NCBI GenBank assembly: GCA_017062915.1
Contig: GCA_017062915.1_4331.1
Length of the DNA stretch: 40,644 nt
Source of the DNA: a phage
Direction: 5' to 3' (one strand)
Position numbers and translations under genes: made by a program. Shown in pieces: positions 234 through 36,347 of this stretch. Position 1 is the stretch's first letter. The number at the start of each line of letters is the position of its first letter. The notes beneath the pieces were generated by a model, which was given only the letters and a program-made list of their open reading frames with translations, did no database searches and was not told where the DNA came from.

Positions 234-749
234 ATGAGCCAGGAATCAGTAGAAGCAGCCTACCGCCGTAAGCTGGCCTCAAACCCCGACGGCGAGATTG
301 ACTACACGACGCTGGAGATAGTGCATCCGCTTCTTTCGAAGCGGTATTTACTTGTGCGCGGAACTTCTGACCTGACGGCAACGTTAGAGACCGGAGAAGT
401 AGTTACGTTTGAGGCCACACCAATGGAGGCTAAAGGGGCCGCCAACAATAACGACATGGACCAGCGAGCATCGTTCGCATTGCCCGATATTGGAAACCAG
501 TTAGACGATGAGATGGATAGGATACCGCCCGATAATACCGTGTTGCCTAAGTTTATATTCCGCCGTTTTGTTAGTACCGATTTGTCTTACCCGGCTGACG
601 GGCCTGTTGTGTACGAGTTGCAGTCGATAAACCAGGAAAAGGGGCTATTTACCGCCGACGTTGGCGTTCCTATGTTGAACCAAAGGGTCACTGGTGAACT
701 AATGACCCCTTCAGTAATCCCATTGTTACGGGGCGTTTTGTCCACATGA
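234..749 (+). CDS. minor tail protein (putative)
   Basis: 171-aa ORF in the tail gene block, end overlaps the next gene start (translational coupling); no catalytic motif recognised. Confidence 0.4.
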   Translation: MSQESVEAAYRRKLASNPDGEIDYTTLEIVHPLLSKRYLLVRGTSDLTATLETGEVVTFEATPMEAKGAANNNDMDQRASFALPDIGNQLDDEMDRIPPDNTVLPKFIFRRFVSTDLSYPADGPVVYELQSINQEKGLFTADVGVPMLNQRVTGELMTPSVIPLLRGVLST

Positions 750-1111
750 ATATTAATTCTTATACAGGGTTGCCGTACGACTTTCGCCGTCGTAATTGCT
801 GGCACCATGTCCGTAACGTTCGTGCTGATGTAGGCCTCTTTACGCCTGAGTTTAACGTCGCTTCGCCAACACAGATTAACGACGCCTTCGAAGAAGGCCA
901 TAAAGATACTAAAGGCCTTGTACGCGTAGAAACTCCGCAAAACTTCGATGCCGTGCTGATGGCAACACGGCACAGAAACCGTGTAATCTGGCACGCCGGA
1001 GTATACTATGACGGTATGGTTAGTCATTGCGAGCTGGCGAGTCGCCAGGTACGGTTAGACCGTCTGGAAGACTTGCGCGAAACTTATGCGGAGATAGAAT
1101 TTTGGCGCTGA
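746..1111 (+). CDS. minor tail protein (putative)
   Basis: 121-aa ORF coupled to its neighbours in the tail block; assignment by position only. Confidence 0.35.
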   Translation: MNINSYTGLPYDFRRRNCWHHVRNVRADVGLFTPEFNVASPTQINDAFEEGHKDTKGLVRVETPQNFDAVLMATRHRNRVIWHAGVYYDGMVSHCELASRQVRLDRLEDLRETYAEIEFWR

Positions 1112-3657
1112 CATTACATTACACCCGTAACGAAGACGGTACTTTCGACCGCGAACGGCACAACGTACCGCCGATGGAATACGTCGTCGCTAACATCCCC
1201 GACGGGGTGCCTGTACGTATTTACCGTGGCGAGATCGGCGAGGACACGGAAGTAACTGAAGATTTCGAAGCGCTGAAAGAAGACAATGTTTTCCATATTA
1301 TCGAAGGCGCTGGTGGCGGTGGTGGTTTTCTGGGTAAACTCCTGGACCCTTTGGGCGTGCTTAAATTTGTTACCAAGTTGATTTCTCCGTCGCAGAAAAC
1401 GCCTAAAACGAGTTTAGCGAACCAGCAGGCTGAGTCCCCTAACAACAGCCTGACGGACCGAAACAATAAACCACGCCCATATGAACGGTCGTATGACATT
1501 TGCGGCAGGGTCCAGACTATCCCTAATGACCTCATGACAACGTATAAAATATTCGACGAATCCGGGCGAATTATCGAATACGGATACTACGATGCCGGTC
1601 GTGGGTATCTGGACATCAAGGCCGAAGATATTACCGACGGCGATACTAAGGTACAGGAGATTACGGGGACCTCTGTCGCGGTGTACGCGCCGTTTACATC
1701 CCCCAACAATACAAATACCCCGCAGCTTCTGGTGGGGGAACCTATCAATCAGAATCTTTATATAACTATCGCGTCTAATGAAGTAGATGGAGCCGTTCTT
1801 AAAGCCCAGAACGATATTCGGGTCAACCCAAGCGACACGGGCCGCGTGAGATATGACTCTGCTACAAAAATTGGATACCTGTATGACGACACGGGGGATT
1901 CTGGCTTCGCGGAAATATTATCTGTTGGTGACACCGCGTCGTTCAATAACTTTGACGTTCCGGGCGTAACAAATACCAACGGCAACTTTCGTGTTCTTTA
2001 TGTCGATAACTTCGAGCTGCGGGTCGACACCGGCGGCGCGTCTAATTGGGCTGCTTTAGGCTCAACCACCTATTCACTTTCCCAGAGAAGTGACACGTGG
2101 GTAGGCCCCGTGGATACGTATGAAAGAACATTAACCGACTGGACCACCTTAAACCGCCTGGAAGTTGAACGCGTAGTAGCCAACATCGCTGCCGCTAACG
2201 GTATGTATAAAGACAACGGCAGTAAATTGCGTACGTCGGTAACTATTGAACTCCAATACCAACTACTCGATGAAACCGGTGCCCCATACGGGAGTATCTA
2301 TTCAAAACAGGCCGTTATATCTGGTCGGTCCGCCGACTACACCGGAGTTACTATTTACGCCGACTTGCCCATGAGGTCGAAAGTTAGGGTACGTGCCCGT
2401 CGTGTTACCAACCTGGACCTTGATTTCGAGGGCACCGTGGTAGACGAGGTTTCCTATATCAACCTTTACGGTCAGGTCCGTGACACTACGCCACATTACG
2501 GCAATCGTACTACCGTACACTCGGCACGTAAGCAGACGCCGCGGGCCGCAGAGATTAAGCAACCACAGTTACGTATGGTCGCCACAGAGATGGTGTACAA
2601 ATACCTCGGTAATGGTGTATTCGATACCGTAATGACACCGAATACTCAGGCCATTCAATCATTAATACGTCTCGCCCGTGACCCGGTAGTAGGTAATCTC
2701 AACCTAACAACATCCAATATGGACAAGTTGTTAGCGACTCAGACCGAGATTGAGAATTATTTCGGTAACGTGGAGGCGGGTCAATTCTGCTACACTTTTG
2801 ACGACTATAAAATGACCATGCAGGATATCATCAGCACAATAGCCGATGCTATTTTCTGCACTCCATATCGTAAAGGGCAAGACATATTACTGGATTTCGA
2901 GCGCCCGCGTATGGGGCCGGAAATGGTATTCACACATCGAAGTAAGACAACAGCTTCGGAAAAGTGGACGCGCACATTCAACGACGCTCAGGTATACGAT
3001 AGTCTTAAGTTCTCCTACATCGACCCAGATACTAACGTAAAAGAGACCATCAGCATTCCCGCCGAGGGCGGTGTTAACACAGAAACGTATGACTCTAAAG
3101 GTATACGTAATTATCGTCAGGCGTACTGGGCGGCGTACCGTCGGTACCAGAAGAACCTGTTGAAGAAGGTGACGGTATCATTCACGGCAACAGAAGAAGG
3201 TGTTTTTGTGTTACCAGGGCGTGCAATAAGCGTGGTTAAAGGTTCTCGCGTAGCACCTCAAGATGGCTATGTTGTTGCCGTTAATGGGCTTACCCTGACG
3301 TTATCACAACCGGTTACTTTTACCTCCGGAGACGACCACTCATTGATTCTTAAGAAGCGTGACGGTGGTGTTCAGAGCGTTGCAGTGGTTCCGGGAAGTA
3401 ACGACCGTGAAGTGATTATGCTCTCCGCACCGCAGGAGGCAATTTACACAGGGAATAGCGCACTAAAAACTGAGTTTTCATTCGGCAACGAAGCAAGGCA
3501 TAATGCTCAGATGATTCTTGTTTCTACAGTTGACCCCGGAGACGACAGAACGGTTAAGATTACCGGGATTAACTATGACGACGGATTCTATAAATACGAC
3601 GGCGTCGCGCCTTTCGGTCGCGGTTTCTCCGACGGATTCAGCAACGGTTTTTATTAA
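1027..3657 (+). CDS. tail tip / central tail fibre protein (host-specificity J-like)
   Basis: 876-aa ORF directly upstream of the tailspike; Gly-rich linker GAGGGGGF near the N-terminus; the track start is TTG and overlaps the previous gene, the true start may be the internal ATG near 1174. Confidence 0.5.
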   Translation: MRAGESPGTVRPSGRLARNLCGDRILALTLHYTRNEDGTFDRERHNVPPMEYVVANIPDGVPVRIYRGEIGEDTEVTEDFEALKEDNVFHIIEGAGGGGGFLGKLLDPLGVLKFVTKLISPSQKTPKTSLANQQAESPNNSLTDRNNKPRPYERSYDICGRVQTIPNDLMTTYKIFDESGRIIEYGYYDAGRGYLDIKAEDITDGDTKVQEITGTSVAVYAPFTSPNNTNTPQLLVGEPINQNLYITIASNEVDGAVLKAQNDIRVNPSDTGRVRYDSATKIGYLYDDTGDSGFAEILSVGDTASFNNFDVPGVTNTNGNFRVLYVDNFELRVDTGGASNWAALGSTTYSLSQRSDTWVGPVDTYERTLTDWTTLNRLEVERVVANIAAANGMYKDNGSKLRTSVTIELQYQLLDETGAPYGSIYSKQAVISGRSADYTGVTIYADLPMRSKVRVRARRVTNLDLDFEGTVVDEVSYINLYGQVRDTTPHYGNRTTVHSARKQTPRAAEIKQPQLRMVATEMVYKYLGNGVFDTVMTPNTQAIQSLIRLARDPVVGNLNLTTSNMDKLLATQTEIENYFGNVEAGQFCYTFDDYKMTMQDIISTIADAIFCTPYRKGQDILLDFERPRMGPEMVFTHRSKTTASEKWTRTFNDAQVYDSLKFSYIDPDTNVKETISIPAEGGVNTETYDSKGIRNYRQAYWAAYRRYQKNLLKKVTVSFTATEEGVFVLPGRAISVVKGSRVAPQDGYVVAVNGLTLTLSQPVTFTSGDDHSLILKKRDGGVQSVAVVPGSNDREVIMLSAPQEAIYTGNSALKTEFSFGNEARHNAQMILVSTVDPGDDRTVKITGINYDDGFYKYDGVAPFGRGFSDGFSNGFY

Positions 3658-5907: not shown

Positions 5908-5912
5908 AACTA

Positions 5913-5936
5913 AGGCCCCAAACGGGGCCTTTTCTC
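5913..5936. terminator. bidirectional rho-independent terminator
   Basis: Hairpin AGGCCCC-AAAC-GGGGCCT followed by TTTTCTCT; T-rich on the opposite strand as well; lies between convergent gene blocks. Confidence 0.6.
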
Positions 5937-16911: not shown

Positions 16912-17165
16912 TTGACTTTTACTTAAAAATATGCTAAGCTTCACTGAGCTTGTGAGATATCGCAAGCGACCGCGGAGCGGCAGGGAACGCAACGCGTGCC
17001 ATTAGGCACTTGAGTGTAGTTCCGCTGGCGCTTTCGGAAGGGCCAAAGTCTATTGTTAATCCCACCTAAATACCCAAGTCACTGATAATTAAAAGTTTCT
17101 ATAGTTTCCGTGAGCAAGGTGGAAAGTACTTCACTCCGCTGGGGCGGGCTAACGCCCGCCCACTG
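16912..17165 (+). ncRNA. candidate promoter-proximal structured RNA element, copy 1
   Basis: TTGACT-N17-TAAGCT promoter (16912-16940), about 200 nt without a credible ORF, GC hairpin GGGCGGGC-TAAC-GCCCGCCC at 17142-17161; paralogous to 28022-28259. Confidence 0.4.
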
Positions 17166-17219
17166 CGTTGCGTACTCTTTTAAGAAACGAAAGAATCACA
17201 ACGGCAACGTAACTATCTC

Positions 17220-17248
17220 TTGCACGCCCCAACATAATAGGATACTAT
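17220..17248 (+). promoter_or_regulatory. early-class promoter TTGCAC-N17-TACTAT with AATAG-N4-CTATT palindrome
   Basis: Near-identical module at 18728, 27927(-) and 36211(-); leader TTATCGAAACGAGACAGAGGAG supplies the RBS. Confidence 0.55.
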
Positions 17249-17282
17249 TCACTTATCGAAACGAGACAGAGGAGTGAAGGTT

Positions 17283-18756: not shown

Positions 18757-18796
18757 TCATTTACACAAACGAGAGGAGAGACAAGGTGAAAGAGTT

Positions 18797-24584: not shown

Positions 24585-26078
24585 ATGGTTTCCGCAAATA
24601 TTAACGCAAGGCAAGGGCAGAATGTAAAAACTCGCCATCGCCAGTACGAAGAGTATTTCCCTAAGTGGCAGAAGGTGCGACATGCACTTTCTGGCGACCT
24701 GACATCATATTTACGTGATGTGGGTAAGAATGAGCCAGACCCGGTTTACGGACGGCAGCGTCAAGCTGAATATGAAGCCGGGGCTATCTGCTACAACTTC
24801 ACCAAGCGAACACTCTCTGGCATGGTCGGCTCCGTTATGCGCAAAGACCCCGAGCAAATCATCCCTAAAGAACTTGAGTACCTTCTGGAAAACGCAGACG
24901 GTTCAGGTGTAGGGCTGTGGCAACATGCGCAGGACACGCTGTACGAAATCGACGCTATCGGACGCGGGGGCCTTCTGGTGGACGCGCCCGCGGTAGAAGT
25001 CGCCACTATGGCGGAGCAAAACGAGGGCTTACTAAACCCTACAATTGCTTTCTACACCGCGGAGAACATCATCAACTGGCGGCTTCAGCGCGTCGGGTCG
25101 GTCAACCGTGTGGTTATGGTCGTATTGCGCGAAGAATACGAGTACACCGACGGTACGGATGAGTTCAGCCCGAACTACGGCGAACAATACCGCGTCCTTG
25201 ATATCTTCGAAGGCCGGTATCGCCAGCGTCTGTACCGGTTTAACCAGAAAGGTGCACTGATGGGAGGCGGCTATATCGAAATCTTCCCGAAACTCGGTAA
25301 TATTCCGGTAGGGGTGATTCCGTTCACGTTCATTGGTGCAGGGAATAACGATTCTACGCCGGATGATGCGCCTTTGCTGCCGTTGGCTGAGCTAAATATC
25401 GGGCATTTCCGCAACAGTGCCGACAATGAGGAATCCAGCTTCGTTGTAGGCCAGCCCACACTGTTCATTGCCCCAGGCGAGAATATGAGCATGGAGCAGT
25501 GGAAAGAGGCCAACCCCCACGGCGTGCGCATGGGTTCGCGCTCGGGCCACAACATCGGCTACGGCGGCAACGCGTTTCTTGTTCAGGCGGGCGAGAATAA
25601 CCTTGCCAAACAGAACATGCTGGACAAAGAGAATCAGGCTATCCAGATTGGTGCGCAGCTTATCACGCCGACGCAGCAAATCACCGCTGAATCTGCCCGC
25701 CTGCAACGCGGCGCTGATACGTCCGTAATGGCTACTATCGCGCGCAATGTAAGCATGGCGTACACCGAAGCGTTGCGTTGGGTAGCCGCGATGCTGGGCT
25801 TGCGCGAAGGCACTGAGATTGAGTTCAAGCTGAATATGGAGTTCTTCCTGCAGCCGATGACCGCTCAGGACCGCGCGCAGTGGATGGCTGACATTAATGC
25901 CGGTTTACTGCCTGCAACTGCTTACTACGCGGCGTTGCGTAAGGCCGGGGTAACTGACTGGACTGACGAGGAGATTACGACGGCGATTGAGGATGCACCT
26001 GTGCCGTTAGGTGCTGTTACTCAGGTAGCAGGAGAGATTCCGCAGTCGGCACAGCAACAAAACACCGCTCAGCAGTAA
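24585..26078 (+). CDS. portal protein
   Basis: 497 aa immediately after the terminase gene, RBS AAGAGGA; acidic/Gln-rich C-terminus. Confidence 0.65.
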   Translation: MVSANINARQGQNVKTRHRQYEEYFPKWQKVRHALSGDLTSYLRDVGKNEPDPVYGRQRQAEYEAGAICYNFTKRTLSGMVGSVMRKDPEQIIPKELEYLLENADGSGVGLWQHAQDTLYEIDAIGRGGLLVDAPAVEVATMAEQNEGLLNPTIAFYTAENIINWRLQRVGSVNRVVMVVLREEYEYTDGTDEFSPNYGEQYRVLDIFEGRYRQRLYRFNQKGALMGGGYIEIFPKLGNIPVGVIPFTFIGAGNNDSTPDDAPLLPLAELNIGHFRNSADNEESSFVVGQPTLFIAPGENMSMEQWKEANPHGVRMGSRSGHNIGYGGNAFLVQAGENNLAKQNMLDKENQAIQIGAQLITPTQQITAESARLQRGADTSVMATIARNVSMAYTEALRWVAAMLGLREGTEIEFKLNMEFFLQPMTAQDRAQWMADINAGLLPATAYYAALRKAGVTDWTDEEITTAIEDAPVPLGAVTQVAGEIPQSAQQQNTAQQ

Positions 26079-26088
26079 GTTCACATAT

Positions 26089-26110
26089 AGCCCCGAAAGG
26101 GGCTTTCTTA
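26089..26110 (+). terminator. rho-independent terminator
   Basis: AGCCCC-GAAA-GGGGCT followed by TTCTTAT. Confidence 0.55.
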
Positions 26111-26147
26111 TAGTATGCTATTAACTTTAGCGCCACAGGGTTTATCT

Positions 26148-27191
26148 ATGAGCTTACTTACATCCCTAATCAGCCACCAGATATGGCTGCAACGCACCGC
26201 ATCCGGTGAAGTGAAAGACCTTGCGCCGTTTCTTCAGAAAATGCGGGACGAAATCAAACGGCAGGTGCTGTTATTCGGTGACGACGGGCGAAGCACCGCG
26301 CGGTTGAATAAATTGTTACGCGACCTCGAAGAAGCATTGACTGGGCTTACGGGCGACTGGCAGACAAAGCTGACAGAAGACCTTAAGGAACTGGCGGCGT
26401 ATGAAGCCGAGTGGAACGTAAAGACTCTGACCACCAACGTAAATGCGGAATTTGTTACACCTACCGCCGAGCAGGTGTGGGCCGCCGCCGAGTTTCAGCC
26501 CTTATCATTAAGCGACAAGCCTGTCGATTTCACTAAGCTGATGTCCGGCTGGGGTGAAACAGAAGTGTCGCGCCTGGTAACGGGCGTTAAGATGGGTTTC
26601 GTACAAGGTCAGACGACACGACAGATTGTTAAGAATGTCGTAGGCGCTGGTGGACTGGCTGACATCTCTGAACGCAACGCAGCTACGGTAATACGTACTG
26701 CGCTGTCTCACGTGTCCAACGAAGCACGCAACGAGACGTACCGCCAGAATGACGACATCATTGAGAAATACGAATGGGTGTCGACGCTGGACAGCCGTAC
26801 CAGCACGATTTGCAGAGCCAGAGACGGAATGACATGGGAAATTGGAAAAGGGCCGATGCCCCCGGCCCATCCGAACTGTCGAAGTACCACTGCACCCGTA
26901 ATAAGCTCCGAGTTCGACTTCCTAGATAAAGGCGCAAAACGCGCGGCTAAGGGCGCAGACGGAGGCACTCAGGTAAGCGCAGATACCACTTATTACGAGT
27001 TCCTGAAACAGCAACCGGCGTGGTTTCAGGACCAGGCGCTCGGCCCTGTACGGGGTAAGATTTTCCGCAACAGCGGTATATCGCCGGAAGAGTTTCGCGT
27101 AATATCTGTAGATGGTTTCGGGAATCCGCTCACGCTTAAGCAGATGGCGGAACTCGATAAACGTGTTGCTGATTATCTGAAAGGGGAATAA
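26148..27191 (+). CDS. head morphogenesis / minor capsid protein (SPP1 gp7 / Mu F-like)
   Basis: Position after the portal gene; size about 350 aa; family from memory of the typical portal-associated minor capsid protein. Confidence 0.55.
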   Translation: MSLLTSLISHQIWLQRTASGEVKDLAPFLQKMRDEIKRQVLLFGDDGRSTARLNKLLRDLEEALTGLTGDWQTKLTEDLKELAAYEAEWNVKTLTTNVNAEFVTPTAEQVWAAAEFQPLSLSDKPVDFTKLMSGWGETEVSRLVTGVKMGFVQGQTTRQIVKNVVGAGGLADISERNAATVIRTALSHVSNEARNETYRQNDDIIEKYEWVSTLDSRTSTICRARDGMTWEIGKGPMPPAHPNCRSTTAPVISSEFDFLDKGAKRAAKGADGGTQVSADTTYYEFLKQQPAWFQDQALGPVRGKIFRNSGISPEEFRVISVDGFGNPLTLKQMAELDKRVADYLKGE

Positions 27192-27652
27192 TGATGGGCT
27201 TTTTCAAAATTACTGATGTACCGTCGCGTCGCGTAGTCCAGTTTGCCCGTGTGTCTGGCTCTGGCGAGAACGTGGTGTTTATTGAAGATGAAAGTGAACT
27301 GGGTACACCGGTAGACGATATGCCGTTTGCGGATAAAACTGGCATTGCGCTGCCCGCGGCGGGTATGCTCTATGAGATTCCGTATCTGGCTGATGCAGGC
27401 GACGTGTATTTCTCTGCGCAACCGCAGGACGCTGAACTGACAGACGGCAGCGCAACTATCACTGTCGAAGTTAAGGCGGGCAAAGCACCATATGCTTTAA
27501 CATGGTACAAAGACGGAAAGGAAGTGGTAAACGCACCCGAAGAGGCCTTGTCTCTGTCGGTTAATTCTGTCGGCGAATACTTCGTTAAAGTTACTGACGC
27601 CGATGGGGTAGAGGCTGTGAGTAAAGCAGCAAAGGTTACTAAGCCAGAATGA
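27191..27652 (+). CDS. hypothetical protein with Ig-like C-terminal domain (possible capsid decoration protein)
   Basis: C-terminal beta-rich repeat-like segment (ITVEVKAGKAPYALTWYKDGKEV...YFVKVTDADGVEAV). Confidence 0.35.
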   Translation: MMGFFKITDVPSRRVVQFARVSGSGENVVFIEDESELGTPVDDMPFADKTGIALPAAGMLYEIPYLADAGDVYFSAQPQDAELTDGSATITVEVKAGKAPYALTWYKDGKEVVNAPEEALSLSVNSVGEYFVKVTDADGVEAVSKAAKVTKPE

Positions 27653-27656
27653 TAAA

Positions 27657-27682
27657 AGGCCCCTTACGGGGCCTTAGTTTTA
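27657..27682. terminator. bidirectional rho-independent terminator
   Basis: AGGCCCC-TTAC-GGGGCCT flanked by T-rich sequence on both strands; between convergent genes. Confidence 0.6.
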
Positions 27683-27892
27683 TTCATGCGTCGCTGCTCT
27701 AAAATTAAGTTCTTCACGAGGGATAAAACCTCTATCAGTTTTTACGTAACAAGTTGTGTAACTGTACATTACCTCTCTGCCTGTGATATCTCCGTAGTTC
27801 TCACACTCGTGTTTATCTAAGCTGCGTACACCAACAGCAGTTACCAGTAAAACCGCCGATACCGTCAATACCGCTTTAATTAAGTCTTTCAT
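27680..27892 (-). CDS. small secreted protein (signal peptide plus about 45-aa two-Cys domain), accessory gene
   Basis: N-terminal MKDLIKAVLTVSAVLLVTAVGVRS signal-like segment; own early-class promoter; reverse orientation inside the forward late block. Confidence 0.5.
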   Translation of the reverse strand: MKDLIKAVLTVSAVLLVTAVGVRSLDKHECENYGDITGREVMYSYTTCYVKTDRGFIPREELNFRAATHE

Positions 27893-27926
27893 CTTTAAAT
27901 TCCTTATCTCTCGTTTCGATAACTGA

Positions 27927-27955
27927 ATAGTACCCTATTATATTGGTGTCTGCAA
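27927..27955 (-). promoter_or_regulatory. early-class promoter TTGCAG-N17-TACTAT with AATAG-N4-CTATT palindrome
   Basis: Same module and leader (TTATCGAAACGAGAGATAAGGA) as the promoter at 17220. Confidence 0.55.
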
Positions 27956-28021
27956 ACTATTTGTTTACGTATTACAGTTATTCCTCCTAATTGTAAATGT
28001 TGGAATAAACTATTCGAATAG

Positions 28022-28259
28022 TTGACTTTTCACTAAAAATATGCTAAGCTCCACCTGAGCTTGTGAAGTATGAACAAGCGACCGCGGCGCGGGCAGGTAA
28101 CGGAGCGGGACGTAAGTCATGAGTGTAGTTACGCTGACGCGTTCGGAAGGGCCATACTCTATTGCTTGTGTAAAAAGTAACTGGTTTACTGAGATTACGC
28201 CGTTTCTATGTTTAAATGATAAGGACTAGCGCCCCGCTTTAAGGCGGGGCTTTACTTAT
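28022..28259 (+). ncRNA. candidate promoter-proximal structured RNA element, copy 2
   Basis: TTGACT-N17-TAAGCT promoter (28022-28050), conserved core shared with copy 1, intrinsic terminator GCCCCGC-TTTAAG-GCGGGGC plus T-tract at 28231-28259. Confidence 0.4.
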
Positions 28260-28274: not shown

Positions 28275-28661
28275 ATGAATCTTAAAGCAACTGTCGTAGC
28301 GGGAGCATGTTTCATCGTCCTGTTATATGCACACGGCATCTACCAGTACCGCGTCGGCTGGAACGAAGGCCGGGCGAATATCATTTCGCAGCAACAGCAG
28401 AAAGCACAGGCTGAGTTAGCGAAGAAAACACAACGGCAGCAGCAGGACGAATCAAAGGCCGCAGCCGCTGACAACGAAGGCAAGACGAAATCAGAGGTGA
28501 TTACCCGTGAAGTCGTTAAGTACATTAGAACGCCTGGTCGCAGCGTGTGCACTTTCGATGATGCTCGCGTCCTGCTCAAGTCCCGTGCCATCGCAAACGC
28601 CAATTCCATCCCCGGATACGACGATGATGCAGCCGCCATGCAAGCTGGCTCTGCCAAGTAG
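28275..28661 (+). CDS. inner-membrane spanin (Rz-like)
   Basis: N-terminal TM segment, Gln/Ala-rich coiled-coil region, RBS AAAGGAG; contains an embedded lipoprotein gene in another frame. Confidence 0.6.
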   Translation: MNLKATVVAGACFIVLLYAHGIYQYRVGWNEGRANIISQQQQKAQAELAKKTQRQQQDESKAAAADNEGKTKSEVITREVVKYIRTPGRSVCTFDDARVLLKSRAIANANSIPGYDDDAAAMQAGSAK

Positions 28662-28770
28662 AGACGCTGACGAGGATTTGGCTATTGACGTCCAGAACGC
28701 CGAATGTGTACGGCAACTGCGCCTGAAAGTATTCCAGTTGCAGGATTATGTGAGGAATATTCTGGAATAG
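28507..28770 (+). CDS. outer-membrane spanin lipoprotein (Rz1-like), overlapping the Rz-like gene
   Basis: Lipoprotein signal with lipobox LASC, Pro-rich mature region; overlapping out-of-frame arrangement typical of Rz/Rz1. Confidence 0.55.
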   Translation: MKSLSTLERLVAACALSMMLASCSSPVPSQTPIPSPDTTMMQPPCKLALPSRDADEDLAIDVQNAECVRQLRLKVFQLQDYVRNILE

Positions 28771-34154: not shown

Positions 34155-34159
34155 AACTA

Positions 34160-34184
34160 AGGCCCCTTTCGGGGCCTTTTTCTT
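34160..34184. terminator. bidirectional rho-independent terminator
   Basis: AGGCCCC-TTTC-GGGGCCT with T-runs on both strands; separates the major tail gene from the convergent accessory cassette. Confidence 0.65.
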
Positions 34185-34593: not shown

Positions 34594-34823
34594 AAATCGC
34601 TCTCCTCTGTAAGAATAATAACCGCAGAAATAGCTACGGCGGCTACATATAAAAGACGTATGCCCGTTAAGCTAGCCTGTGTGGCCTCTTCGTACAAACT
34701 AAAGAACACTGACGAGTCCATAGAGATGAAGCACAAGGCTAACGCCAGAATTAACACGGAGAAAGCCAGCACAAAGAAAATAGCAAGCGGCATTATGGCG
34801 AAAATCCACAATAACTTAATCAT
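34590..34823 (-). CDS. small two-helix membrane protein
   Basis: 77 aa; two long hydrophobic segments; ATGA coupling on both sides. Confidence 0.45.
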   Translation of the reverse strand: MIKLLWIFAIMPLAIFFVLAFSVLILALALCFISMDSSVFFSLYEEATQASLTGIRLLYVAAVAISAVIILTEESDL

Positions 34824-35950
34824 CCCAGCATCTCCGGTGAAATAGTTAAACGAGCGACCTCGCCGTATTCGGCGCTATAAGTAATTACATTTGCACTCCG
34901 GCCTGACATCCATCCGCCGCGGGAAGCGTAGGCATCTTTAGCGGCCAGGGTGCGGTGTTGTTCAACAATCATGTTACGGCTTTCAATAATTTTCTGGTGG
35001 TGGAGGTGGCCCACATGCGCGTAGCTGTAGACGCTCTCGCCGAACGCTTTGCGGAACTTGGCAATCATAACAGGCTCGATTGCGTCGAAGCGTGCCTTAT
35101 GCCCGTGGTGGAAGAACAGCGTCGTTTTGCCGTGTTGCACCATCTTGTACACATCTGGCGACGTATCGACGAACACACGTGGCTCATTGTCGTACAGTGT
35201 GCTGAACATCTCCGCCAGCCAAATCATCCCACTTTCGTCGTGGTTTCCCTGAACTATAAGCAAGCGAACAGTTTTATGTTTAACCAGCGCCATATCGACA
35301 ACACGGCGTACCATGCGAATCATATAGCGAACAAGTTTCTGATAGCGCGTGTCGGCGTCAAGGACATGACCACTCGCTGGCGTAACGGCGTCAAGACTGT
35401 CGAAGTGCGCCAGGTCCCCCAGAAGATTAATAACCCCCGTACCGGCATCCGGTGCTTTCTGGAACGCAGCGTCAAACCAGCGGGAGAACAAGTCTTCCGC
35501 GATTTTCATATCCCAGTCGTCGCCGCTCTCATCGGCCCAGGCTAACATTCCGAGATGGAAATCGGACACGGTGTACAGGTTAAGCAGCTTATCGTCACGT
35601 TTAGCCATGGCGGCCTTCACCGGAGCTACCGGGGTAATCTCAGACTTCATGCCTTCGATCACGGCTTTCATCAACTCGACCTGACGTTCGGCATCTGTAT
35701 CAGTCTTAACCCACTGCAACTTGGTGTTGCCGAACTCGTCAACCAGAGACGACGTACCCTTAATCTTGTAGCCGTCTGGTACAAGGTGGCTTACGTCACG
35801 CCCGTGACCCACGCCTTTCTTGGCCAGCTTCGCTTTACGGATGCGGATAACGCGGTCTGAGATGCCGTATTTACGGGCGATATCGATATTCTTCATCCCG
35901 GCGTTCAATTCTTCCTGTAATTGCTCGTCGGTTATTTTCTTCTGGGCCAT
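34820..35950 (-). CDS. HTH-domain protein fused to a calcineurin-like metallophosphoesterase
   Basis: Start at ATG with RBS GAGGAAG; N-terminal HTH (IDIARKYGISDRVIRIRKAK); complete metallophosphoesterase motif set DFH, GDLAHFD, GNHDE, HHGH, GHLHH. Confidence 0.65.
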   Translation of the reverse strand: MAQKKITDEQLQEELNAGMKNIDIARKYGISDRVIRIRKAKLAKKGVGHGRDVSHLVPDGYKIKGTSSLVDEFGNTKLQWVKTDTDAERQVELMKAVIEGMKSEITPVAPVKAAMAKRDDKLLNLYTVSDFHLGMLAWADESGDDWDMKIAEDLFSRWFDAAFQKAPDAGTGVINLLGDLAHFDSLDAVTPASGHVLDADTRYQKLVRYMIRMVRRVVDMALVKHKTVRLLIVQGNHDESGMIWLAEMFSTLYDNEPRVFVDTSPDVYKMVQHGKTTLFFHHGHKARFDAIEPVMIAKFRKAFGESVYSYAHVGHLHHQKIIESRNMIVEQHRTLAAKDAYASRGGWMSGRSANVITYSAEYGEVARLTISPEMLG

Positions 35951-35988
35951 GCTTACTTCCTCGTGTTTAGGATTTGTCTTATAGTAGC

Positions 35989-36180
35989 CTACTTCTCTTT
36001 CACGTTCGAGTTGCAAGCCCAGATTAAAATGAATACCCACGGCAACAAAACCCATCCGAGAAATAAGTTAGCCATGAATATCGCCAGCTTTGCTTTATGG
36101 TTACGGAAGTAGGCAACTAAAAAAGGCGCAAAGTACGCGAGCAGTGCAAACAGGATTAAGGAAATTGGTAAACTGGACAT
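35989..36180 (-). CDS. superinfection-immunity-like small membrane protein
   Basis: 63 aa, two TM helices; pattern YFAPFLVAYFRNHKAKLAIFMANLFLGW...LIWA matches the small Imm-like superinfection-immunity family (from memory); first gene after an early-class promoter. Confidence 0.5.
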   Translation of the reverse strand: MSSLPISLILFALLAYFAPFLVAYFRNHKAKLAIFMANLFLGWVLLPWVFILIWACNSNVKEK

Positions 36181-36210
36181 TTTAAAACCCTCTATTGTTG
36201 GTGTAAGTGA

Positions 36211-36239
36211 ATAGTACGCTATTATATTGGGGTGCGCAA
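36211..36239 (-). promoter_or_regulatory. early-class promoter TTGCGC-N17-TACTAT with AATAG-N4-CTATT palindrome
   Basis: Same module as 17220, 18728 and 27927; drives the reverse-oriented cassette 34183-36180. Confidence 0.55.
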
Positions 36240-36347
36240 GTAATGTGATAGAATAATTTTGCGCCTAGTGTCGCACACGAAAAGCGGGTGGTTCCCGTCT
36301 GGCGCATTTACCATTAACCTGTAACCTCTTAACCAAAGGATTAAAGA

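Follow-up and report, generated by a model that had tools for sequence, protein, structure and literature searches.

A self-contained cassette encoding a predicted small membrane protein among the structural genes of a Kagunavirus phage

Why does a virulent phage carry one small gene that points against its structural genes, and what might such a gene do? This question is raised by a minus-strand gene for a 70-aa protein in a 40,644-nucleotide stretch of phage DNA (NCBI GenBank assembly GCA_017062915.1, contig GCA_017062915.1_4331.1; hereafter the window, meaning the whole stretch). The region of this gene is approximately 92% identical to Kagunavirus phages (Guernseyvirinae: K1H, HSE2 and others), and the phage is a virulent E. 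coli phage of this genus, whose members are described in BASEL as virulent, small siphoviruses with genomes of 41–44 kb that need surface glycans as the host receptor (PMC11990801). The original prediction, made from the sequence alone, had proposed a moron encoding a small secreted protein with two Cys residues. We found that the gene is real, and the data strongly support the view that positions 27656–27957 form a self-contained, horizontally mobile expression cassette of moron-type organization. On balance, we favor the reading that this mobile cassette carries a single-pass membrane protein with a dispensable role at the cell envelope, for which the exclusion of other phages is our leading guess. 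The parts of the cassette and the spacer beside it are as follows.

27656..27675, both strands: bidirectional intrinsic-terminator hairpin AAGGCCCCTTACGGGGCCTT (AAGGCCCC-TTAC-GGGGCCTT)
27680..27892, minus strand: coding sequence of the 70-aa protein, stop included, with an ATG start; MKDLIKAVLTVSAVLLVTAVGVRSLDKHECENYGDITGREVMYSYTTCYVKTDRGFIPREELNFRAATHE
27683..27817, minus strand: codons 26–70, predicted soluble mini-domain, conserved (juxtamembrane helix, three beta-strands, helix)
27827..27874, minus strand: codons 7–22, hydrophobic core of the predicted N-terminal membrane anchor (AVLTVSAVLLVTAVGV)
27893..27926, minus strand: 5' leader with the conserved TCAGTTATCGAAACGAGAG motif
27909–27957, minus strand: repeated promoter-like element of about 47 nt
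27958..28021: conserved spacer that separates the cassette promoter from the divergent promoter of a non-coding RNA (ncRNA)-like element

The reverse-oriented gene with two Cys residues was present as predicted, at 27680..27892 on the minus strand, with Cys30 encoded at 27803–27805 and Cys48 at 27749–27751. Its ATG is preceded at a distance of 8 nt by the Shine-Dalgarno sequence AAGGA (27901–27905), and its stop codon lies 4 nt from the hairpin at 27656–27675. Pairwise Nei–Gojobori ratios of nonsynonymous to synonymous substitution rates (dN/dS) were 0.14–0.39 for the whole gene, 0.04–0.24 for codons 26–70 and 0.3–0.95 for codons 1–25. Six close homologues were found in metagenomic Kagunavirus contigs, and when 1.84 billion cluster representatives were searched with a profile, 692 proteins were obtained at E <= 1e-3, so that the family spans at least 692 clusters when 50% identity is the threshold; the family matches listed were all 57–107 aa in length and aligned over their full length. 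When a profile built from 270 family members was compared with the six-frame translation of the window, the only open reading frame (ORF) matched was that of the 70-aa protein (E = 6e-26), and no paralogue was detected elsewhere in the window by the same search. Because the ORF has a ribosome-binding site (RBS), is under purifying selection that is strongest on the domain and belongs to a large family matching over its full length, it is a real gene; the dN/dS values and the family together rule out a spurious ORF.

The gene also differs from its surroundings in direction and in base composition. It is the sole supported minus-strand gene from the small terminase gene (22764) to the end of the tail block (34154), all others being on the plus strand, and it is flanked by the bidirectional terminator (27656–27675) and by the second copy of the ncRNA-like element (28022–28255); both of these points agree with what had been claimed. 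The GC content of the ORF is 40.4%, compared with 50.4% for the genome and 0.51–0.55 for the neighboring genes, which places it among the lowest 2.7% of 213-nt windows.

We then examined the distribution of the gene in related phages, as the original prediction had proposed. Among 185 matching phage records, EC3-1 alone covered the insert with the 70-aa gene. In a tblastn search against all phage records, the only Guernseyvirinae matches were EC3-1 and phiEap-2, whereas the surrounding region was matched by 306 records; in phiEap-2, another member of the subfamily, a homologue of 49% identity occupies the same site and points in the same direction. This patchy distribution, as opposed to a genus-wide, syntenic and co-oriented presence, rules out a conserved virion component. 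An alignment of the window with EC3-1, K1H and Bas70 displayed near-identical flanks around a replaced core. The left flank of this slot between the Hoc-like decoration gene and the spanin genes (the Hoc|spanin slot) includes the terminator, the core runs from just past the terminator to just before the leader, and the right flank extends from approximately 27905 through the promoter and the ncRNA-like element. The cargo in relatives, listed below, includes a 33-aa hydrophobic peptide and a 114-aa lipoprotein; thus, several of the alternative cargos are also envelope proteins.

K1H, L002 2385–2486, minus strand: 33-aa hydrophobic peptide M.VAISFVLLVNLGLFVWAVSGVEDADSGNGEL, unannotated; no 70-aa gene
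L007 1651–1752, minus strand: gene for the 33-aa hydrophobic peptide
fBC-Eco01 and HSE2: the 33-aa peptide, then a 114-aa lipoprotein (lipobox LSGC, phrog_13472)
Bas70, minus strand: 67-aa acidic protein
fEg-Eco19, minus strand: 173-aa clamp/RusA-like protein, annotated there as "possible moron"
Other relatives, minus strand: Dam methylase

A second slot was found at the junction between the portal gene and the Mu-F-type head morphogenesis gene (the portal|MuF slot), with the following contents.

Window 26079–26114: empty, with a simple AGCCCC...GGGGCT hairpin
L010 4834–5001: 55-aa gene (phrog_35937), in L010–L012; a AAGGCCCC-type hairpin in L010
L013 2634–2846: 70-aa cassette, in L013 and L014 (metagenomic Kagunavirus)

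In L013 and L014, the encoded protein is 81% identical to the 70-aa protein and its gene runs opposite to the portal and Mu-F genes. Over the promoter and leader, 63 of 63 nt match window positions 27955–27893, and the gene is followed by its own AAGGCCCC...GGGGCCTT hairpin, while the coding sequence differs from that of the window at 45 of 213 nt (21%). Because the leader is identical although the coding sequence has diverged to this extent, the leader appears either to be under far stronger constraint than the gene or to have been homogenized by conversion. The Hoc|spanin slot of L013 is empty, contains no promoter element and has a different, simple terminator; empty cargo slots bear the simpler AGCCCC-N4-GGGGCT hairpin (e.g. 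window 26085–26102 and L013 1001–1016). In L015, the Hoc|spanin slot contains tandem cassettes, namely a promoter with a 3'-phosphoadenosine 5'-phosphosulfate (PAPS) reductase gene and then a promoter with the 70-aa gene. This stacking is accompanied by a duplication of the spacer sequence (window 27958..28021): the 40 nt that precede the promoter occur twice, with TTATTCCAACATTTACAATT..GTGGAATAACTGGAATA ahead of both promoters. The PAPS-reductase-family gene of L015 (270 aa, 416–1228, plus strand) has its own copy of the cassette promoter class.

Judged from the relocated versions (L013 and L014) and the stacked version (L015), the unit of inheritance is the promoter, gene and terminator together. 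Such a unit fits the working definition of a moron (PMC3594210), and the 70-aa cassette displays patchy presence at the same position, its own terminator and a deviant base composition. Together with its own promoter-like element, its opposed orientation and the second slot, these features bear out the moron-type organization originally proposed. Repeated promoter and stem-loop motifs also occur at the replacement boundaries between close relatives, as in PeSL-type (promoter-early stem-loop) cassettes, which shuffle ORFans in T4-type phages. In the literature on Kagunavirus and Guernseyvirinae concerning morons and exclusion, we found no description of the 70-aa gene or of the slot.

The 3' boundary of the cassette is the hairpin at 27656–27675, which scores as a terminator on both strands and ends both the Hoc-like gene (plus strand) and the 70-aa gene (minus strand). 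Hairpins of the AAGGCCCC-N4-GGGGCCTT type occur three times in the window (5912–5931, 27656–27675 and 34159–34178), compared with an expectation of 0. Each of the three copies sits where plus-strand and minus-strand genes converge.

At the other end, the gene was expected to have a promoter of its own, and we found there the repeated element at 27909–27957, whose copies also precede other start codons. Read toward the 70-aa gene, it comprises TTGCAG (27955→27950), a 17-nt spacer and TACTAT (27932→27927); TATAAT is also present at 27942→27937. The element recurs at about 17219–17266 (plus strand), ~18728 (plus strand) and 36204–36240 (minus strand), and every copy is located about 30–40 nt ahead of a start codon on the same strand. 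The four window copies have in common TTGC(A/G)N-N17-TACTAT, then TCA, and then a leader of ~30 nt; AAACGAGAG stands ahead of the RBS in three of the four leaders, also at 17250–17266 and 18765–18775. Activity toward the 70-aa gene is favored on four grounds: all copies stand at a constant distance from the start codon; of the sequence upstream of the gene, the element alone is kept in the portal|MuF slot; its conservation does not depend on the cargo behind it; and a PHIRE promoter is annotated on that strand in fBC-Eco01. The element could nevertheless be bidirectional.

The genes headed by this promoter class give an indication of when the protein is made. Copies head a block of small ORFs from 17274 and a block from 18797, and the copy at 36204–36240 heads a minus-strand operon (36180–34183) that ends at the hairpin at 34159–34178. 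The first gene of this operon encodes a 63-aa protein (35989–36180, minus strand) that matches the Pfam family Imm_superinfect (PF14373, the T4 Imm family) with 48.6 bits, above the cut-off of 27.9, as well as phrog_1039; the second encodes an SbcD-like exonuclease (34820–36055). From the small-ORF blocks and the Imm/exonuclease operon, it appears that the 70-aa protein is probably made early and independently of late structural transcription. Within the cassette promoter element, at 27926–27939, lies the 14-nt palindrome AATAG-N4-CTATT, which has seven exact copies in the window (7903, 11386, 13702, 17236, 18744, 27926 and 36210) compared with 0.02 expected. This palindrome looks like a common operator through which a phage regulator would control a regulon of non-structural genes. 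All of its copies are inside promoter-like intergenic elements: three are in the spacers of near-consensus TTGACA-N17-TATAGT promoters on the minus strand, before replication and recombination genes, and four overlap the TACTAT –10 of the weaker promoter class.

We further analyzed the protein itself. Its uncharged stretch, A7–V22, is bounded by K6 and R23, and is followed by a domain with the signature C-x2-Y-x3-T-x-R-x-T-x-[YFW]-x3-4-C-[YF]-V-x4-5-[WF]-[IV]-P-x2-E, often with an RA[IV]TNE end. The pair of Cys residues is present in 268 of 270 family sequences; the exceptions are one fragment and one full-length sequence in which the first Cys is lost and a replacement Cys occurs at position 59. 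Such a loss of C30 with a replacement is typical of a structural disulfide. An AlphaFold2 model based on a 39-sequence alignment (predicted local distance difference test score, pLDDT, 91) consists of a helix (residues 2–37), three strands (41–44, 47–52 and 55–58) and a helix (59–68), and the fold of the domain is accordingly predicted with confidence. The helix 2–37 has a pLDDT of 88–93 and is unbroken from its hydrophobic part to the part that bears Cys30.

The original prediction had asked for homology and structure searches, and these succeeded within phages and failed beyond them. Over residues 7–66, the protein matched three PHROGs profiles (phrog_26710, E = 1.7e-11; phrog_18961, 6.8e-9; phrog_27356, 6.3e-7), and this profile match, the N-terminal transmembrane (TM) segment and the signature domain identify it as a member of the phrog_26710-related family of small two-Cys membrane proteins. 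The protein thus belongs to a large uncharacterized phage family. Scans of the protein and its divergent relatives against Pfam (nothing at E <= 1 for the 70-aa protein), NCBIfam and PADLOC yielded no family; a profile search of the PDB yielded nothing below E = 0.4, and a Foldseek search of the PDB with the model nothing below E = 0.65. The structural neighbors in BFVD were solely uncharacterized members of the same family from Acinetobacter phages, Salmonella phage 9NA and other phages. Two candidate identities were rejected. A lipoprotein of the Llp/Cor type is ruled out because the lipobox L-[AS]-[GA]-C is absent, the sequence reading ...LLVTAVGVRSLDKHEC with no Cys in or right after the hydrophobic run. 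A Hok/Gef type I toxin, suggested by an apparent C-E-x7-R-E-V likeness, is ruled out because there is no Pfam match at E <= 1, the motif differs, and the protein has a second invariant Cys and a beta-domain.

Family members occur in phages of E. coli, Salmonella, Enterobacter, Serratia and Acinetobacter. In T4-like phages of Acinetobacter, a member lies between regA and gene 43 (DNA polymerase); in Dhillonvirus, it lies among early genes; and members are also found in small-ORF runs of a 249-kb T4-like jumbo phage and of a 90-kb phage. In a low-GC, temperate-like phage (L023 4065–5303), a repressor-like regulator (phrog_14474) is followed by a 77-aa family member, resembling that of an Acinetobacter phage, and by a strong terminator. 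This unit is divergent from a Cro-like helix-turn-helix gene, and a fresh TTGACA-17-TACTAT promoter lies beyond the terminator. The position of the family member there is that of rexAB in lambda. Members of a sister cluster are present in Serratia marcescens chromosomes, presumably within prophages; a scan of 185,579 representative bacterial and archaeal genomes with Guernseyvirinae-type motifs gave 48 pattern matches, none of which was confirmed. As judged from gene order, the context of the family elsewhere is consistently an early or accessory region.

Taken together, these observations can be accommodated in the following model. Four parts would make up the cassette: a promoter of host type, a short RBS-containing leader, a single gene and a terminator acting in both directions. 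It is inserted so as to oppose the structural genes, in a slot whose cargo differs between relatives. The promoter class, with its operator-like palindrome, would give an early protein apart from late structural transcription. In this protein, the weakly conserved N-terminal helix would act as an anchor alone, and the functional part would be the strongly conserved domain of ~45 residues (helix, three-stranded sheet, helix) held by the two Cys. Most likely, the protein would act at the cell envelope in the course of infection, in a role that is dispensable. More specifically, we tentatively propose that it excludes secondary phages, preventing their DNA from entering or their tail tips from acting at the periplasm or inner membrane, in the manner of T4 Imm/Sp, T5 Llp or HK97 gp15. 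This putative role is suggested by the promoter class that the gene has in common with the T4 Imm homologue, and by the homologue beside a repressor-like gene in the temperate-like phage.

Several observations weigh against this model. The domain is highly conserved across hosts, which is explained no less well by a conserved host target than by a competing phage, and the phage already has an Imm homologue. The block from 18797 extends into the holin and endolysin genes, which makes the designation 'early' insecure, and a simple sigma-70 scan rates the opposite strand higher (TCGATA-17-TATATT at 27916–27944, plus strand). Furthermore, K and R counts are equal on both flanks of the anchor in 185 family members, so charge bias gives no verdict on topology.

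The strongest competitor is a host-takeover or anti-defense effector, whose domain would bind a conserved host envelope protein (e.g. one for cell division or for the metabolism of peptidoglycan or lipid carriers) or a membrane-bound defense and so aid the infecting phage. We regard this as possible and nearly as likely as exclusion, and it better suits the fact that the domain is so extremely conserved between phages infecting E. coli, Salmonella, Enterobacter, Serratia and Acinetobacter, with dN/dS values as small as 0.04. The early-gene context in most phages also agrees with it, and the non-envelope cargo (clamp/RusA-like protein, PAPS reductase and Dam) leaves the slot itself without a theme. 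However, the protein matches no known anti-defense or takeover family, and the repressor-like neighbor in the temperate-like phage is better suited to exclusion expressed from a lysogen. A role as an accessory to lysis timing, antiholin-like or acting on the spanins, is the least likely of the alternatives. The protein resembles T4 RI in having an N-terminal anchor and a small periplasmic domain, and in Kagunavirus and phiEap-2 its gene adjoins the i-/o-spanin pair in divergent orientation. This adjacency, however, belongs to the slot and not to the gene: most relatives fill the same slot with unrelated cargo, the cassette also occurs between the portal and MuF genes, homologues in other phages are away from lysis genes, and the holins and endolysin of this phage are at 19.2–20.5 kb.

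The remaining alternatives concern the N-terminal segment and the side of the membrane on which the domain lies. The original prediction of a secreted protein implies that a Sec signal peptide is cut off to leave a soluble mature periplasmic protein of ~48 aa, or, as a variant, a releasable anchor of the signal-anchor-release (SAR) type. The window copy does lend itself to this interpretation, with an uncharged run of 16 residues that is the shortest of the family bar one, a composition rich in A, V, T, S and G between K6 and R23, and the sequences A-V-G (19–21) and V-R-S (22–24), both of which obey the –3/–1 rule. The family as a whole does not: the median run is 24 residues in 185 members, relatives with 84–86% identity have I for K6 and hence runs of 19 residues, and more distant members have strongly hydrophobic runs of 20–27 residues. 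Cleavage motifs vary (F-A-G and V-R-I in L013, S-I-G in phiEap-2), with no conserved –3/–1 motif, and the unbroken AlphaFold2 helix leaves no polar c-region. Because of the longer runs in relatives, the non-conserved cleavage sites and the unbroken helix, the segment is best read as an uncleaved single-pass membrane anchor, and we consider secretion via a signal peptide rather improbable. As for topology, an inverted arrangement (N-out/C-in) would place the domain in the cytoplasm, where the Cys pair might coordinate a metal or serve as thiols, as in a dimer. The positive-inside rule gives no guidance here, the N-terminal flank is slightly acidic on average, and Dhillonvirus members have acidic N-terminal tails (e.g. 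FFDYDGDLRFW); but the invariant Cys number just two and are not accompanied by conserved His or Asp ligands, the replacement of C30 is typical of a structural disulfide, and the hosts named so far are all Gram-negative, so that we consider this arrangement very improbable. Given the invariant Cys pair and these Gram-negative hosts, an N-in/C-out topology with the domain in the periplasm and a C30–C48 disulfide is the most likely, and we regard it as probable.

The genes around the cassette are listed below.

24585–26078, plus strand: portal
26115–27191, plus strand: Mu-F-type head morphogenesis gene
27191–27652, plus strand: Hoc-like decoration protein gene
Between the Hoc-like gene and i-spanin: gap of 620 nt, holding the region of the 70-aa gene
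28022–28255, plus strand: ncRNA-like element, copy 2, with its own TTGACT-N17-TAAGCT promoter and its own terminator (28231–28250)
28275–28661, plus strand: i-spanin
28507–28770, plus strand: o-spanin, lipobox LASC
Downstream of the spanins, plus strand: scaffold, then major capsid protein
16912–~17150, plus strand: ncRNA-like element, copy 1, with its own TTGACT-N17-TAAGCT promoter

In a different frame, the o-spanin gene partly overlaps i-spanin at the 3' end of the latter and continues for ~110 nt beyond the i-spanin stop codon, which is the standard overlapped Rz/Rz1 arrangement; the pair is ~8 kb away from the holins and endolysin (19.2–20.5 kb). Copy 2 of the ncRNA-like element is transcribed divergently from the 70-aa gene and is 88–89% identical to 16912–17055. 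It is near-invariant in four Kagunavirus genomes, exceeding the flanking protein genes in conservation, and ORFs of 36–38 aa are annotated inside the element in some GenBank records. An Rfam scan of the whole window, including this element, identified no family.

Accessory cassettes are where phages keep genes for phage competition and host manipulation. The present cassette is an ordinary kind of element, cleanly defined and carrying a protein of a large uncharacterized family. It is unusually clean in that its boundaries are defined at the nucleotide level, its promoter is identical despite divergence of the gene, and empty, alternative and stacked versions of the slot exist. The by-products of most use are two precisely defined cargo slots in Kagunavirus and, with them, a transferable promoter/terminator pair; the slots may perhaps serve as neutral insertion sites, with promoter and terminator already supplied, for engineering these phages, considered attractive for synthetic biology in BASEL (PMC11990801). 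Since the 70-aa gene is short, can be dispensed with and occurs in phages of E. coli K-12 derivatives, its function is quickly testable. A more far-reaching interpretation, which we consider doubtful as a whole, is that the protein is the founding characterizable member of a very large family of early phage envelope effectors, each with an anchor and a disulfide-stapled mini-domain, and that the structural modules of Kagunavirus contain PeSL-like landing slots. If this is the case, the family of at least 692 clusters, which spans T4-like, jumbo, Dhillonvirus and Guernseyvirinae phages and temperate phages of Acinetobacter and Serratia, would represent a new and widespread exclusion mechanism of virulent phages acting on a conserved periplasmic or inner-membrane component of the host; the portal|MuF and Hoc|spanin slots would be landing sites at which cassettes are exchanged, stacked and relocated by recombination between repeated regulatory motifs.

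Several known systems resemble the cassette or its product in part. T4 Imm (PF14373) and Sp/Spackle, which act early in superinfection exclusion, are likewise small envelope proteins of a lytic phage, and the Imm homologue of the window (35989–36180) shares its promoter class with the 70-aa gene. T4 Imm has two TMs, whereas the 70-aa protein has no PF14373 match, one predicted TM and a beta-containing domain. The receptor-blocking lipoproteins Llp of T5 and Cor are small envelope proteins that face the periplasm and are expressed early or from a lysogen, and T5 Llp is stabilized by disulfides. The 70-aa protein differs from them in lacking a lipobox and any homology, and the receptor of Kagunavirus consists of surface glycans (PMC11990801), not FhuA.

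At the level of organization, the PeSL cassettes of T4-type phages (Arbiol et al. [quoted passage not shown] The Kagunavirus cassettes differ in that they are in small siphoviruses, lie within the structural module and are known here from sequence, and in that the promoter and terminator are on either side of the cargo and do not form one composite motif. Another comparison is with the gp15 moron of HK97 (Juhala et al. 2000; Cumby et al. 2012; PMC3594210). The two proteins have no sequence relationship, the 70-aa protein having no match to YebO or any other Pfam family; in addition, expression from a prophage is inapplicable to a virulent phage, the 70-aa gene opposes the operon around it, and its role in exclusion is putative. 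Nevertheless, both are genes for small inner-membrane proteins (predicted, in the case of the 70-aa protein) that each come with a promoter (a putative one here) and a terminator of their own and a deviant GC content, reside inside a late structural operon, are missing from close relatives and have spread horizontally.

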